Part shown: positions 3,260-18,407 of the stretch, piece after piece
Layout: every line of letters starts with the position of its first letter
How positions within the stretch are numbered: the stretch's first letter is position 1
Virus record (IMG/VR): IMGVR_UViG_2576861133_000001
Length of the DNA stretch: 19,349 nt
From: a virus
Lineage: Duplodnaviria > Heunggongvirae > Uroviricota > Caudoviricetes
Strand: one strand, 5' to 3'
The notes under the pieces: generated by a model
Seen by the model: only the letters and a program-made list of their open reading frames with translations
Told to the model about the DNA's origin: nothing
Database searches by the model: none
Position numbers and translations under genes: made by a program

Positions 3260-6200
3260 TCAGCATTCCTCCGTCACGTCGCATGGACAGCATCACCGCC
3301 TGCACCCGCTGGTCAATCAGCTGCACAAGACTGCCTGCCGCCTCCGCCCCTATCTGTCCGTTAGCCCCGTCATTCTGAATGGCGATGTGGTAGACCGGGG
3401 AATACACCAGACCGGCACTGCCGTTCATACTGCCCACCGCGCGTACGCCCAGCGAGCCATCCGCCGCCCGGGTCAGGGGCATAATGGCTTCAGGTCCGGC
3501 TTCCCCCATCAGCCCGGCCCCTTTTGCAAACGCAAAGTACGTGGGCGTGTCCACAATGCTGTTGCTGTACGCACTCAGGTTTGCCGAGGTATACACGCCG
3601 CCTTTTGCATTGGCCACCGCACCGCCCAGCCAGTCACCAATGCTGCCAATAAATCCTCCCGCACCGGACATACCGTTTGCCGCCGTCTTAATTCCGTTGA
3701 CAATCGCAGCATTCATAAGAACTTTTGAGATTTCCTGCAGTACGGATGAGGCCCAGTTGCGCCATTCCACTTTGTTTCCGTTCAGCATCTCCGTGATGTT
3801 ATTCACCATCCCTGAGATACCCTCCGTCGCAAGCTGTGCTGCCTGTGAGGCGTAATCGGATGCATTGTCCACCCAGTTACTGAGCCCCTCCTGCAAGCCT
3901 TTCTGCCAGTCCGCACGCTGCGCATCCGATTCGGCATAAAAGGCTGCCTGGTCCTTAAGGCGTTCGCTCAGATACTGCGCGTTCTGTGCCCGTGCCTGTC
4001 TGTAAAAATCCTCACTGATATCCCCGGTCTGATACTGAGACTGAAGGTCCGCATCCTTCTGGCGGAAGCTGTCACGGATCTGCTGCAACTCCCGCATGCG
4101 TTCCCTGGCTCGTTCTCCCTGCCCGTATCCCAGCAGTTCGGCTTCATTTGATGCACGCGCAGCCACATTATCATTCTTCAGGGTCTCTTCCCGGGATCGC
4201 AACTGTTCCCGGATTTTTTGCTGGTCAATCAGGGCCGCGTTACGCAGCAGTTCCTGCTTCTGCATCTCCGTCAGGGTTTTCAGTTCGCCCTGCGCAGTCT
4301 GGTACTTCAGCTTCGCCAGCTCTGTATTCTGACCCGCCAGTGCCAGTTGCTCTTTCTGCTGCTTCAGTAGCCGGGAAAAACTGTCTTCCGCTTTTTCCGT
4401 CTCTGATTTTCCACCCCGGGATTTAGGTTTGTTCGCCTCGTTATTACGCCAGGCTTCCAGAGCATTACTGATATAACGCTGTCTCGCCTCCTGATACGAA
4501 TCCCCCACAAAACCAAGGTCATCCGCCGCATACCCCAGCCGGGCACGCTCTTTTTCCTCCCCCTTCAGTCGGGACAGGGCCAGCTCACGTTCTGTTTTTG
4601 TCAGGGCGCTCTGCTGTTTATCATCCAGGGTGGCCTGCGGCAGCCGTAACGGTACATTCACCAGTCCCTGACGCTGCTGAAGCAGTTCATTCCCCAGCCC
4701 CAGCAGACGGTTGAATTCCGTATGCTGACCGTTCATAACCAGCATGGACTGGTACACCTTATTCTGCTCTGCCGCCTGCTGACGAATTAACGCCACACGA
4801 CGGTCTTCCAGCCCGGCAAGCACATCCTGAATGGACTGCGCTTTTTCCTGCATCTGTGCCAGACGGGACTGCTCAACGGCAAGCTGCTCTGTTGCCTGAG
4901 AAAGCCCTTCCGTCACGGTCTTCACCGATGTCAGATGGTTTATCATGAATCCGTCACCGGTTGTCCAGCCAGGGTTAGCCAGAACATACTGATATCCAGC
5001 GATTTTTTCCTGCAGGGATTTCACCCGGCTGGCCTGTTCATCAATCAGCCGGTTCTGCTCTGCCAGCGCCGCCCGTGTTCGTCCTTCATTATCTGAGGCT
5101 TCAGGCAAAGACATTGACGGCGTTTTATGCGCGATTTCATCTATCGTCAGTGCATACTGGCGCGCTGACTCCCTGGCCTGCTCCTGATTCTGGTACAGCG
5201 TATACCATGCTGCTGCCCCCAGCATCACCAGTCCGGGTACGCCACCAACCAGTCCCAACGCACCAGTCATCAGACGTGAGCCCACCGCCGTTGTACTGTT
5301 CAGCTCATTCTGGGCTGCGGTTCTGGCAGCAATATTTCTGTTCAGGCGTTCCTGTGTGGCCGCCAGACGGGCTTCTGCAGCAATCTGCATCTCCGTCCCG
5401 CGGGCTGCCGCCACAGCCTGCTGTGCACGGTACACGGCTGCCCTTGCCCGCGCCGTGGCAATCTGCGTCCCCCTGAGCTGTGCTTCCGCCAGTGCCACTT
5501 CATTACGTGCTGCCGTCACAAGTCCTGCCGTGGCAGACACCGCTCCGGAGGCCATATTGCCAAAGTACCGGGCAACCCCGACGGCAACCAGCGCCCCCGC
5601 GGCTGTTGCCACATTATCAATATTACCGGCAACACCGTTCAGCACGCCGGAGAGCGTTTTCGTCGCTCCGCTGGCTTCATTCGCGCCACCCACCCAGGCC
5701 ATAAAGGCGTTTTCCACCTTTGTGATCCCGTCAGAGACCGTTTCCGGCATGGCGGCATATTCATCACGCAATACCCCCAGCTGGCTGATTAACGCAGGAA
5801 CGACTTTATCCGCCGTCAGTTTGCCGTCGTCCGCCATCGCCTTAAGGTCTTTACGGGCCACGCCCATACCCGCAGCCAGTGCACGTACGATCCGGTCTCC
5901 GCTTTCATTGACCGAATTAAATTCCTCACCGCGTAACACACCCTGTGCCAGCGCCTGGCTGAACTGGGTGATCACCGAGCCCGCCTCTGCCGTACTGGCA
6001 CCGGAGATTTTCAGCCCCGTGGAAATGGCCTCCGTCACCTTCAGCACATCATCAGCACTGTAACCATATTCACGCATTGAGGCTGCCGAGCGGGCAAACA
6101 GGGCCGCATTATCTGAAAATGCCGTGCCCGTCCGCTGGCTGATATCCATCAGCACTTTCTGTGATGACGAAAATTCATCGGATGACTGCGACGCCTGTTT

Positions 6201-14283: not shown

Positions 14284-15945
14284 TTATATGAAAAAAACCG
14301 CATATTCTTTCTTTTTCGGTTCCGGGTTAAGGGACATCAGGGAGACCGCATTGAACAGCGCCATCAGCGGGTCAATTTTTCCCCGTCCACTGGCCTGTTT
14401 GGTGATAAGAATGGCGTTACCTTTAGGCTCCACCCGGGCATTGCCGACACACCAGGCCATCAGGGGCTGGTCACCATGCACCAGCACCCCTTCAGCCAGT
14501 TTGCGCTCGGTGGTTTTAATGGCCCCGCCCAGTTTCCAGCCCTGGCTTATCCCCACCACAATTCCGTCGGGGATCCCGGCTTCCGCCAGTGAATCCAGAA
14601 TCTGCCCCACCCCTGACGGGTCAATACCGATATGGTCCAGTAACTCAGCCTCATGAATGCGACGCACATATTCCGCCACTTCCGCCGTGTCATCCCCGAC
14701 ACGCCGGACAATGGTCATATCTCCACAGGCAACAAGATCCTGAAACCGGGACGCCTCGCTCTTCCGTCGGACCACCGCGGTTTCATGCGCCCAGGCATGG
14801 CCCCAGCCCAGCCATTCGCGGGTCTCCCGGTCACGCCCAATCACATACATCCCCAGCAGATCATCCAGCCCTCCGCCGTCAATCCCCACCGTCACCACAT
14901 CAGCACGACGCAGGATATCGTCCAGGCTGATACAACGGCCCTGCTCTTCCCAGAAATCAGCCCCCGCCCAGCGGTCAGAGCGCAGGGCAAGACCAATTTC
15001 CACATTGGCGTGTTTTGACATGAACCCCCGGAATGTCTCTTCACCGGCTTCCCGGGCTTTACGGTACTCCCGGTACAGAAAGGCCTCATCCACTGAATAG
15101 CCGAGATTCGGATTGACCATGGCGAGGTTTTCCATCAGCAGGTTAGTCCCGCTTTCCACCATTTCAGGAGGGTGTTCAAATATCACCGGCAGAAAGTGCG
15201 GATCATGAATTTTGCCGTCGCGCACATCCCGGGCGTACTGCAGTTTCTGTCTGAACACCCCGGCGGGCGGTTCATTCGACTGGGTGGTCGTATACACCAC
15301 AAACCCTTCCGGGCGGGAGGCAAGGCCGCCTATGGCTTCACGTAACATGTCCTCCGCCTTGCACTGCTTGCCAAACAGCCACAACTCATCAATCAGCGTA
15401 CCCACGGACTTGATACCGGACACCGTATTCGGATCGGCTGCCACCACCTTCAGGGTGGTGTCCGTCACTCGGTGGGTGATGGTCCGGATATGGGTCTGTA
15501 CCTGGCAGAGGTCATCCAGATCATCGTCACGTCGTACCATATCCCGGGCAGGGTTGAAGGCGTTGGCCGCCACCTCCACAGTCGGGGCCAGAATCGTGTA
15601 ACCCGCCGCCTGCCGCCAGTTCAGTAACAGTGCAGTCATCATGATCCCCGCGGCCAGCGTGGACTTCGAGTTTTTCTTGGGGATAAGGATAAAAACTTCC
15701 TTGATATGGCGTACACCGGTCTGCGCATCGTAGGAGCCAAACAGGGCCGCCACCAGGTCAAACACCCACGGTGCACAGGACTCCCCGAACGTAGGGCTAC
15801 CAGGTGCATCCACAATCCGCAGTTGTTTAAAAATCGCCAGGGCATGTGCGGCCTCGTCCGGATAAATCGGATCCGGAATAATCGACAGCCCCTTTTTCAG
15901 GCGCTCTGCCCAGTCCGGGCAGGCTGTGCTCCATACAGGTATCAT
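14284..15945 (-). CDS. Terminase large subunit
   Basis: 553 aa; Walker-A-like LIPKKNSKST; C-terminal nuclease-like region; ATG overlaps the small-subunit stop as ATGA. Confidence 0.85.
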   Translation of the reverse strand: MIPVWSTACPDWAERLKKGLSIIPDPIYPDEAAHALAIFKQLRIVDAPGSPTFGESCAPWVFDLVAALFGSYDAQTGVRHIKEVFILIPKKNSKSTLAAGIMMTALLLNWRQAAGYTILAPTVEVAANAFNPARDMVRRDDDLDDLCQVQTHIRTITHRVTDTTLKVVAADPNTVSGIKSVGTLIDELWLFGKQCKAEDMLREAIGGLASRPEGFVVYTTTQSNEPPAGVFRQKLQYARDVRDGKIHDPHFLPVIFEHPPEMVESGTNLLMENLAMVNPNLGYSVDEAFLYREYRKAREAGEETFRGFMSKHANVEIGLALRSDRWAGADFWEEQGRCISLDDILRRADVVTVGIDGGGLDDLLGMYVIGRDRETREWLGWGHAWAHETAVVRRKSEASRFQDLVACGDMTIVRRVGDDTAEVAEYVRRIHEAELLDHIGIDPSGVGQILDSLAEAGIPDGIVVGISQGWKLGGAIKTTERKLAEGVLVHGDQPLMAWCVGNARVEPKGNAILITKQASGRGKIDPLMALFNAVSLMSLNPEPKKKEYAVFFI

Positions 15946-16505
15946 CCGTTGCCCTCATTATCGTTATTCACCACCAGTCGGGGGGGCGGTGGCACCGCAA
16001 AACGGTTAGCCGCTTTTTTCGCGGCATCACCTTTTGCCGATTTTTTCCCGGTATCCCCTTTTTTATGGTGCGTGAACTGCGCCAGACGCCAGGCCGCATC
16101 CAGTGCCAGTTTCGGATCAATGCAGAGGTTTTCCACCAGGATCCGCCCCATGGCTTTCACCGGATCGGGAAGACCATCCTCCATATATTCAATACCAGGA
16201 GACATCACCGCGGACGGTGGCATCTCCAGATTGTTTTCGTCCGGCTGTGGTATTGCAGCCGCCTCACGGCGACGGGGTTTATCCTCCTGCTCTGATTTTT
16301 TCTGCCGGTAAACAGGAACCTCATCCACCTCCACCGTCTCGCATTGTTTACGGGCTATAAACGCAAGCACCTCAGGATCTTTTGCCAGCTGCGAGCCTTT
16401 AACCCTGGCGGTCTTCGCCGAATAACCGGCGGCAATGGCTGACGCTGTTTTGTTTTTCCCGGACATGAGCGCCAGCGCAAATTTTCGTTTTTGCGTTGTC
16501 AGCAC
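15942..16505 (-). CDS. Terminase small subunit (Terminase_2-type HTH N-terminus)
   Basis: 187 aa; GTG start at 16505 preceded by GGAGGAGG; N-terminus LTTQKRKFALALMSGKNKTASAIAAGYSAKTA resembles small-terminase DNA-binding domains. Confidence 0.75.
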   Translation of the reverse strand: MLTTQKRKFALALMSGKNKTASAIAAGYSAKTARVKGSQLAKDPEVLAFIARKQCETVEVDEVPVYRQKKSEQEDKPRRREAAAIPQPDENNLEMPPSAVMSPGIEYMEDGLPDPVKAMGRILVENLCIDPKLALDAAWRLAQFTHHKKGDTGKKSAKGDAAKKAANRFAVPPPPRLVVNNDNEGNG

Positions 16506-16579
16506 AGCCTCCTCCCGGGTCCAGAACGCACTCAGCCGGGTATGGTTCAGCCCATTTTTCCCGGCGTCTCATGCCGCAA

Positions 16580-16702
16580 ATGTTAACTGCTGCCTGGTTA
16601 ACATTTGCTGAAAAAGCCTGTTAACATTTTTTCCGCACAACAAACTGAATAATAAAGATAAAAACCGCAAAAATGCCCGGGCAGCCAGTTAACATGTTAA
16701 CT
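16580..16702. promoter_or_regulatory. Array of five GTTAAC(AT) palindromic motifs; candidate cos / terminase small-subunit binding region
   Basis: GTTAAC at 16582-16587, 16597-16602, 16620-16625, 16688-16693 and 16696-16701, four of them with the extended 8-mer GTTAACAT/ATGTTAAC, inside the 290-bp gap between the HNH and terminase small-subunit genes. Confidence 0.55.
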
Positions 16703-16795
16703 GCCCTGAAACGGGAATTTTTTCTCTGCGTGAGAGGGGGCGCGGTGTCCAAAGCGATCGTTTTTTACGCCGGATGATACCCCCCCCGGGTTGGG

Positions 16796-17161
16796 TTACA
16801 GTCCGATGATGTCGTCCTCTCTGCCACTACCTCCGGACACCTCCGGCAGCGTCGGGTCCGGCATACCACTCGCCGCTTCACGAGCAGACTTTTGTCGATG
16901 GCATTCGGCACAGAGCGTCCAAAGATTCGTCTCCTCATTACCACCACCGAACTGAAGTGCAATTCGGTGATCGAGTTCACTGTCACAGAGGTCAACCACA
17001 CGACCACAGATACAGCACTGCCCGGCGTCCCTCAGCCAGATATGACGCTTGAGGGAAACACGTGCACTGCCACTGACACGACGCTGCTCCCCCTTCAGAA
17101 TATTCACCCGTCGGGTATTCAGTGTTTTGATTCTGCTCTGGAGTGTACGAAGCTCAGCCAT
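16796..17161 (-). CDS. HNH endonuclease (terminase-associated)
   Basis: 121 aa; zinc-finger-like CCICG...C...DH...N...N...CAECH HNH motif; location immediately upstream of the cos-like region and terminase genes, as in HK97-type packaging modules. Confidence 0.85.
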   Translation of the reverse strand: MAELRTLQSRIKTLNTRRVNILKGEQRRVSGSARVSLKRHIWLRDAGQCCICGRVVDLCDSELDHRIALQFGGGNEETNLWTLCAECHRQKSAREAASGMPDPTLPEVSGGSGREDDIIGL

Positions 17162-17202
17162 GTAAAATCCCCGTCATATGGCAATCAGTAAAGGAAATAA
17201 AT

Positions 17203-17403
17203 ATGTCATCGAAAAACCGGACCCGCAGAACCACAACCCGCAATATCCGTTTCCCCAATCACATAATTGAACAGATCAACATCGCCCTTGAGCATAAAGG
17301 GTCCGGTAACTTTTCAGCGTGGGTTATTGAAGCCTGCAGGAGAAGGCTGGCAACAGATGCAACGCATCTGCGCCCGGCCAGCATGACAAATAACGAGAAA
17401 TGA
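17203..17403 (+). CDS. Small ribbon-helix-helix-like protein, possibly YlcI/YnfO-like (DUF3950-type)
   Basis: 66-aa ORF from ATG 17203 with an AAGGAAA ribosome-binding site 5 nt upstream; sequence NIRFPNHIIEQINIALEHKGSGNFSAWVIEACRRRL resembles RHH-type small prophage proteins (recollection); it is the only plus-strand gene in the window. Confidence 0.5.
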   Translation: MSSKNRTRRTTTRNIRFPNHIIEQINIALEHKGSGNFSAWVIEACRRRLATDATHLRPASMTNNEK

Positions 17404-17601
17404 ACGTTCGGTTTCTTCCACCATCGCACCGGACAGGCGACTATGAGGGGACAACGCCGCGCTCCGTTAACGCGGTAAACCCCGGTGTGTATCGTTTTTG
17501 ATTATCCCCGCACACTCGCGCAGAGGAGTCTCCCTGTCGGGCTGCGGTCTCTGTTAATGCAGGAATACGGCGACAATACCGCGCATGGATAATAAGGTCG
17601 C

Positions 17602-17817
17602 TCAACACACTGGCTGTAATACCATGCGGCATTTAGCGGCATTCATCGTACACTCCACGGTTAGCTCTTCATTCGTGGCATTCACCTGAAAGGTCCGGGA
17701 GTGTAATTGCGTACATTTACCACTGAACGAACCTTCAACAAGAACACGACCACGCTGCAAAATACGGAACGGAATTGTTCCCTGAAAAGGTTCTACGGTT
17801 ACCCGTAATTTCTTCAT
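17602..17817 (-). CDS. Hypothetical 71-aa protein translationally coupled to Rz
   Basis: Its ATG (17815-17817) overlaps the Rz stop as ATGA; Cys-containing, no signal peptide, no family recognised. Confidence 0.45.
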
Positions 17818-18308
17818 GTATCCTCCGGATAATAAAAAGCCAGCTTAGTGCACTGAGTGCGGATATATTCCTGCGCCCCTTCCAGCTGCTTCTGCATTGT
17901 CATCAACCGTTCTCTGAGGATGAAATAATCCCGTTCAGCGGTGTCTGCCAGTCGGGGGCCGGTTGCATTATCCACGCTGGAGGTGCCGGTGGCTTCACGC
18001 ACGGTACCGGGGCAGGTGGCGTTGACCCGCAGGCGCTTACGACCAGCGGCAACATCAGCGCGCAGAGTTTCATTTTCAGCTCTCGCATCGGCTAATTCCT
18101 TCGTGTATCTGGCATCAAGCGCAGCGACATCTCGCTGGCGCTGCTGCATGTCAGTAATAGTGGCATTCGCCAGTTTCAGCTCACTGACTTTTTTATCGCG
18201 CTGCGCTTTGTAGGTGATGGCGTTATCGCGGTAATGATTCAGCCCCAGACTAAGCACACCACAGGCTACCAGCATGACAATAATCACCACACACAGAACA
18301 CGGTTCAT
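17814..18308 (-). CDS. Rz: Spanin inner-membrane subunit Rz
   Basis: Start set at ATG 18308 ([14 protein letters not shown]...); [16 protein letters not shown] and [10 protein letters not shown] match recalled lambda Rz; the ORF-track start at 18392 is a GTG extension. Confidence 0.85.
17903..18088 (-). CDS. Rz1: Spanin outer-membrane lipoprotein Rz1, embedded in the +1 frame of Rz
   Basis: 61 aa; lipobox LVVSAC followed by a Pro-rich segment [26 protein letters not shown], very similar to recalled lambda Rz1. Confidence 0.8.
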
Positions 18309-18407
18309 ATCACCACCAACGGATTGCCCAGACCAGAACAGCAATGGCCACAATACGAATGGCAAATGCCATTGCCCGAATAAGTTCAGCACTCATCTTT
18401 TTAAAGT

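Follow-up and report, generated by a model that had tools for sequence, protein, structure and literature searches.

A lone YlcI/YnfO-family gene oriented against the late operon of a lambdoid prophage, and its possible role as a ribbon-helix-helix regulator

Arc and Mnt of phage P22, which control ant in immI, are small phage-encoded proteins with a basic arm, a strand of the form N-x-R-aromatic-P (NLRWP in Arc, NFRMP in Mnt) and two helices; the contact residues are Q9, N11 and R13, and in Arc N11 and R13 of the strand contact bases. Corresponding features are predicted for the product of the small phage gene analysed here, although this protein has no significant sequence or profile match to Arc or Mnt, no operator was identified in the window (the whole 19,349-nucleotide stretch of caudoviricete DNA under analysis, IMG/VR record IMGVR_UViG_2576861133_000001), and the window has no arrangement like that of ant in immI.

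Nearer relatives are YlcI (prophage DLP12, b4589) and YnfO (prophage Qin, b4533) of Escherichia coli K-12 together with an ORF of phage lambda, which are 90% identical to the window protein over residues 1-50, match the same family models and share its placement and its orientation divergent from the first packaging gene. They differ from the window gene in the divergent neighbour, which is cos and a Nu1-type TerS at 388 bp in their case and an HNH gene at 41 bp, followed by an HK97-type terminase, in ours; in their C-terminal tails, to which that of the window protein is unrelated; and in the downstream DUF1398 or YbcW gene, which the window lacks. The K-12 gene ynfO stands on the curators' list of uncharacterised genes (PMC11551758). 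The gene, like its family, has been annotated before, and the locus is an ordinary one; the present analysis adds backing for the fold, the copy in lambda, an operator signature in satellites and the finding that a mosaic junction lies within the gene.

The gene, its family and its surroundings

The window covers the late genes of a lambdoid prophage, all of them on the minus strand, in the order tail, head (portal, capsid), terminase, HNH and lysis (Table 1). An earlier note on this DNA had pointed to a lone plus-strand ORF of 66 amino acids with a good ribosome-binding site, 41 bp from the HNH ATG, had likened it to the YlcI/YnfO-type (DUF3950) proteins and had seen no partner toxin gene downstream, and all of these statements are borne out. 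The coordinates and the AAGGA site are read directly from the sequence: the ORF begins with the ATG at 17203-17205 and ends with the stop at 17401-17403, homologues all begin with MSSKN or MSTKN, and the divergent gap to the HNH ATG, read from 17161, is 17162-17202, exactly 41 bp with two back-to-back ribosome-binding sites inside. Because the gap ends at 17202, the range 17162-17403 given in the earlier note is the intergenic gap plus the ORF. In a DNA alignment phage PPyecE keeps an AGGA-type site despite its differing leader. The remaining long ORFs of the window are all on the minus strand, and the RefSeq annotation of an identical ST131 prophage has, from tail tape measure to lysozyme, no plus-strand gene other than the YlcI/YnfO gene; this annotated stretch misses the first ~4.7 kb of the window, where the all-minus reading rests on long minus-strand ORFs. 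The gene thus stands alone, runs opposite to the late operon and separates the lysis cassette from the packaging genes.

Table 1. Features of the locus (coordinates of the window)
Feature	Position	Strand	Basis or remark
TerL	14284-15945	-	late region gene
TerS	15942-16505	-	HK97-type small terminase
HNH endonuclease gene	16796-17161	-	PF01844 E = 2.7e-7; phrog_589; RefSeq annotation
Candidate -10 TAAAAT for the plus-strand gene	17163-17168	+	read from sequence; without good -35
RBS AAGGA	17191-17195	+	read from sequence; 7 nt before ATG
YlcI/YnfO-family (DUF3950) CDS, 66 aa, stop included	17203-17403	+	ORF, HMMs, RefSeq, substitution bias
Conserved N-terminal domain, residues 1-50 (MSSKNRTRRTTTRNIRFPNHIIEQINIALEHKGSGNFSAWVIEACRRRLA)	17203-17352	+	alignments, AlphaFold
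Variable C-terminal tail, residues 51-66 (TDATHLRPASMTNNEK)	17353-17400	+	PPyecE alignment; NCBI E. coli sequences
Non-coding stretch, 198 bp	17404-17601		3' of the YlcI/YnfO-family gene
71-aa ORF, lysis cassette end, convergent neighbour	17602-17817	-	RefSeq hypothetical protein WP_000736382.1
Rz/Rz1, then lysozyme and holins (lysis cassette)	Rz/Rz1 17814-18392	-	

On the 3' side, the plus strand of the non-coding stretch has no ORF of at least 40 aa beyond out-of-frame noise and the next gene is convergent, so there is no co-directional partner gene; neither the ORF list nor the RefSeq annotation shows a toxin gene downstream. The start of the convergent 71-aa ORF overlaps the Rz stop codon, and since this ORF covers just part of the phrog_2571 profile (unknown function; positions 100-165 of 291 only) it is possibly what remains of a truncated gene. 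In related phages insertions of ~0.2 to 1.1 kb lie between the YlcI gene and the 71-aa ORF, the matches joining two to three pieces spread over a longer span. The non-coding stretch itself contains a 16-nt direct repeat, GGGGACAACGCCGCGC / GGCGACAATACCGCGC, at 17447-17462 and 17569-17584.

On the other side the divergent HNH gene heads the HNH-TerS-TerL packaging block. Between the HNH stop (16796) and the TerS start (16505), at 16576-16704, there are five copies of GTTAACAT(T/G)T or ATGTTAAC, direct and inverted, among them perfect 12-nt arms GCAAATGTTAAC/GTTAACATTTGC, and a C8 tract is found at 16781-16788. In this HNH-dependent packaging system they probably mark cos or the site where the small terminase binds.

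By curated thresholds for its sequence the window gene belongs to the YlcI/YnfO (DUF3950) family. Its product matches Pfam DUF3950 (PF13132) over residues 21-50 with E = 3.1e-19 and 69 bits against a cut-off of 25, NCBIfam YlcI_YnfO_N (NF041551) over residues 10-49 with 35.2 bits against a cut-off of 30, and phrog_949 with E = 8e-33; the identical protein encoded by 100% identical E. coli ST131 prophage DNA is called a YlcI/YnfO family protein in RefSeq (WP_000095741.1). The family core motifs are present (IRFP at residues 15-18, NFSAWVIEAC at 36-45), the size is within the ~50-80 aa of the family, and the site between lysis and packaging modules of a lambdoid prophage, opposite the late genes, is the one typical of it. 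In a 38-sequence alignment I15, R16, F17, I25, F37, W40, V41 and C45 are invariant across Enterobacterales, and the window protein has all of them.

Comparison with the lambda copy shows that the ORF is a real gene. Over the first 50 codons the two DNAs differ at 29 nucleotides, distributed as 5, 0 and 24 over first, second and third codon positions, and the proteins differ at only 5 residues of this stretch; since 24 of the 29 substitutions are at third positions, the protein is under purifying selection. E. coli members hardly vary over residues 1-50; the tails beyond them differ in sequence and length, with at least 8 different ones among NCBI E. coli sequences. In the DNA alignment with PPyecE near identity extends to about codon 50 and the sequences are unalignable afterwards, so a mosaic junction lies inside the 3' end of the gene.

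The locus is common and the family small. The 1.2 kb around the gene recurs with 100% identity in prophages of numerous E. coli ST131 and O25b:H4 genomes, and of 5426 complete E. coli genomes 2063 contain related DNA. Clustered at 50% identity, the family yields 99 clusters in a set of 1.84 billion representatives. The genuine members found come from Enterobacterales once contamination by lambda control DNA is set aside: contigs of ~3.5 kb in unrelated taxa, one of them deposited as a "plasmid" of Arcanobacterium hippocoleae (CP136411.1), correspond to lambda 45042-48488 at 99.8-100% identity. They are sequencing control DNA with nanopore errors, and such error-laden copies have inflated the apparent diversity of the family and of its tails, further apparent tails being derived from these assemblies. 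A match in a Pasteurella phage was dismissed, as it is antisense to an annotated repressor.

Predicted fold and the question of a toxin partner

The N-terminal domain consists of a basic arm (KNRTRRTTTRN), a predicted strand containing NIRFP (~12-18), helix A (19-32) and helix B, which starts from NFSAWV. The AlphaFold monomer, based on the 38-sequence alignment and with a mean pLDDT of 66.7, has coil at 1-18 and helices at 19-32 and 34-55, and such a coil with two helices is what one would expect of an isolated chain from an obligate RHH dimer. Foldseek places ParD2 and NikR (N-domain) at the top with weak scores and non-significant E-values, and CopG-family proteins are the best structural neighbours of the model, mostly RHH antitoxins: CopA_SO (6iya), 5ceg, Rv0298 (8u12), TacA2 (7ak7) and ParD2 (7r5a).

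Sequence methods give less. Among 38 family members the Pfam RHH models found nothing significant (RHH_1 at E = 0.24 in 1/38), HicB-like matches were weak (HicB_lk_antitox in 3/38, best E = 0.022), sequence and profile searches of the PDB were empty, and hhalign against Arc and CopG was not significant (probability 3% for Arc); in this non-significant register the NIRFP of the window protein falls on the NLRWP of Arc. The RHH-like character proposed in the earlier note thus has moderate backing from the AlphaFold helices and the Foldseek matches and no significant match to the Pfam RHH models. Taking this together, we consider an RHH fold of the protein quite likely, short of proof.

As most of the structural neighbours are antitoxins, one may ask whether the gene is an orphan antitoxin or the remnant of a toxin-antitoxin module, that is, the RHH head of a type II antitoxin whose variable tail once neutralised a lost downstream toxin. 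The weak HicB-like matches would fit such an origin, as would the hypervariable tail, which changes with the downstream DNA, and the DUF1398 gene that Qin-type prophages and phage Kati carry directly 3' in the same orientation. DUF1398, however, is not a known toxin family, PADLOC models match neither protein, and no co-directional 3' gene follows in the window, in BP-4795, WGPS2 and PPyecE, or in the satellite loci examined. Unlike the CopG-family antitoxins, the window gene has no cognate toxin gene, and its conserved part is the whole N-terminal domain, with no partner-related conservation of the tail. Since no toxin partner appears in any context examined, we regard the antitoxin interpretation as very unlikely.

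Operator-like boxes beside satellite homologues

The best indication of a function comes from distant members of the family. Satellite DUF3950 proteins, which Pfam and RefSeq names place in one family with the window protein, are 30-50% identical and occur in Klebsiella, Serratia, Xenorhabdus, Pectobacterium, Enterobacter, Pantoea, Providencia and E. coli (for example, WP_000190571.1 in E. coli ABW_S38, and P0240 in Klebsiella). In about 25 satellite loci the gene is likewise a lone opposite-strand gene in a one-directional integrated element, the order being integrase, AlpA or HTH, AntA, DUF3950 (opposite strand), Icd-like, small ORFs, primase, capsid, protease and portal, which is the architecture of capsid-forming PICIs (bioRxiv 10.1101/2022.09.08.507074). 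Unlike the phage version, the satellite genes lie between the int/alpA side and the Icd-like/primase/capsid operon and are accompanied by three operator-like boxes. One satellite protein, P0188 (4714-5103 of its contig), has DUF3950 fused C-terminally to a segment resembling the N-terminal DNA-binding part of small terminases, with a weak Terminase_2 match, and its gene is again a lone opposite-strand one, between integrase and primase.

The satellite gene diverges from the Icd-like/primase/capsid operon across a gap of ~190 bp whose layout is conserved. A GCCCGG...CCGGGC hairpin by the Icd-like start is followed by box O1, box O2 and box O3; after O2 comes an invariant ACGTCAA (on the other strand TTGACG, a would-be leftward -35), so that O2 stands in the spacer before a TATAGT-like -10, and O3 overlaps the TATAGT or TATGGT -10 in front of the DUF3950 gene itself. 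The boxes have the form rGTG-N7-CAC with palindromic ends and are found at about -100, -77 and -30, over two divergent promoter-like sites; most loci have three, and in some the close resemblance is confined to O1 and O2. Such positions, covering the promoter of a divergent operon and not the front of a two-gene cassette, speak further against an antitoxin. Rfam had no match to the satellite leader hairpin or in the window.

The box centres are nearly constant within one element and different between elements, and they vary together with the protein. In a Mantel test over 23 loci the box centre correlated with the 7 residues before IRF (r = 0.72, p = 2e-4), whereas the internal control, box centre versus the two helices, gave r = -0.02 (p = 0.58); the test ignores phylogeny, and some box registers were hand-shifted by 1-2 nt. 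The variable positions before IRF correspond to the positions of the Arc strand that read bases. This co-variation is the best evidence for, and suggests, a family of sequence-specific repressors that would use an Arc-like arm and strand, while the protein that binds the boxes could also be another one linked to the satellite. By homology the window protein should then bind DNA through KNRTRRTTTRN-IRFP.

One could go further and take DUF3950 proteins for the master repressors of capsid-forming PICI satellites, binding three rGTG-N7-CAC operators by an Arc-like arm and strand, with the lambdoid copy (the window gene and the lambda ORF) as a paralogue engaged in helper-satellite cross-talk or prophage silencing. 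If this were so, the cross-talk could run by mixed dimers or by competition with the satellite repressor through the near-invariant helix core, and alternatively the lambdoid copy near cos could silence something in the prophage packaging region. In this full form the proposal seems to us improbable. The repeated boxes over own and divergent promoter that are present in satellites were found neither around 17000-17650 of the window nor in lambda or Qin. More specifically, GTG-N6-8-CAC boxes were sought and no rGTG-N7-CAC box was seen near the gene in the window, lambda or Qin, and near-matches to the satellite TTKG-type box, or triples of similar 12-mers, did not exceed chance. Repeat searches of 16500-17650 and of the Qin upstream region likewise gave no operator-like set above chance, and the non-homologous upstream regions of the window and of lambda/Qin share a single 11-mer, which is the chance level (0.13 expected). 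A 25-nt inverted repeat (17112-17136 / 17225-17249) was not taken for a structure, as the PPyecE differences, judged by eye, break pairs and are non-compensatory.

Placement, expression and probable function

In phage lambda (NC_001416) the copy is encoded at complement 48109-48303, divergent from nu1 and ~200 bp away from the right cos end, and its 64-aa product is identical to K-12 YlcI; the lambda "orf-64" of a CRISPRi paper is a different gene, lambdap73, and was rejected as the homologue. Across the same 388-bp cos region ylcI of DLP12 and ynfO of Qin diverge from nohD and nohA, respectively, and the HNH arrangement with an identical 41-bp divergent gap recurs in PPyecE, BP-4795 and Stx2a_WGPS2, so that the antisense placement between lysis cassette and packaging genes is common to lambda, DLP12, Qin, Stx phages and Kati. 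Further along the same strand lie lambda p78 / DLP12 ybcV (DUF1398) and bor, and neither a DUF1398 nor a bor gene is found 3' of the YlcI/YnfO gene in the window. The sequence GATAATGATTATCATC, upstream of ynfO at 4580-4600 of the Qin locus, agrees at 15 of 19 positions with the Fur-box consensus, and it also occurs in lambda ~30-45 nt from the right cos end, upstream of the ylcI homologue and near cosQ.

Such constancy of place could mean that the protein is an accessory packaging factor, which binds near cos and aids or modulates the terminase (HNH/TerS/TerL). The gene adjoins cos and a Nu1-type TerS in lambda, DLP12 and Qin, and HNH with an HK97-type TerS here, so that its position has been kept across two unrelated terminase types, and the fusion of one satellite homologue to a TerS N-terminal-like domain points the same way. 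The minimal cos function of lambda, on the other hand, consists of cosQ, cosN and cosB without a ylcI-type gene, satellite homologues adjoin the replication operon far from packaging genes, and no motif is common to the gene and the cos-proximal DNA of both terminase types. Besides, the gene is antisense to the late operon, and strong late transcription would be expected to oppose its expression during packaging. We therefore give a packaging role little credit.

How the gene is expressed is suggested by its K-12 orthologue. The ybcW-ylcI pair was reported as a convergent transcriptional overlap in at least 50% of RNA-seq samples (PMC12288877), and ylcI is accordingly transcribed in uninduced cells. 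In the window the scan for a terminator 3' of the gene (17404-17601) stayed at shuffle level with no canonical intrinsic one, so a transcript would meet the one converging from the lysis cassette, like the overlap reported for ybcW-ylcI. The earlier note had expected expression mainly in the lysogen and had proposed looking for a promoter within 17162-17202 and in the distal part of the HNH coding region; the K-12 overlap favours such expression only indirectly, and the promoter scan gave no match above shuffle expectation. The sole plus-strand match nearby is CTGACA-17-CAGAAT at 17073-17101, and the number of matches equals that in shuffled sequence. The candidate -10 overlaps the spacer between ribosome-binding site and ATG of HNH on the opposite strand, any -35 paired with it would fall inside HNH codons, and its conservation in PPyecE may reflect the translation signals of HNH.

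With target, promoter and partner sought in the window and none identified, the gene might be viewed as a dispensable hitch-hiker, a minor moron-like ORF of no regulatory role kept by linkage to a recombination-prone junction between lysis and packaging. The mosaic junction at its 3' end and the uncharacterised status that ynfO still has in K-12 would agree with that. Against it stand the wide occurrence of related DNA in complete E. coli genomes and the comparison of lambda, Qin and HNH-type phages, which, at a DNA divergence of ~20%, shows residues 1-50 to be under strong purifying selection; we find mere hitch-hiking rather doubtful.

Of the two roles put forward in the earlier note, regulator or antitoxin, the second is disfavoured and the first is strengthened by the satellite boxes that co-vary with the N-terminal arm. 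On balance, and largely by analogy, we are inclined to see in the window protein a small, probably dimeric DNA-binding regulator of the Arc/Mnt/CopG type within the YlcI/YnfO (DUF3950) family, mainly because of the lone-gene layout and the co-varying boxes in capsid-forming PICI-like satellites. We propose that two helices would form the dimer core and that the basic N-terminal arm and the NIRFP strand would read DNA. Such a regulator of transcription would be expressed by a weak promoter of its own while the prophage is uninduced and late transcription does not cross the gene, and its transcript would end by collision with the convergent lysis-cassette transcript.

For the window itself the gene is of small consequence; the family deserves modest attention. 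Phage lambda has a member that its RefSeq record does not annotate, E. coli K-12 counts the family among its uncharacterised genes, and over a third of complete E. coli genomes contain DNA related to the 1.2-kb locus. As for the satellites, the clean repressor-operator signature described here could reveal which protein is the missing repressor of capsid-forming PICIs; their induction has so far been explained only via AlpA.
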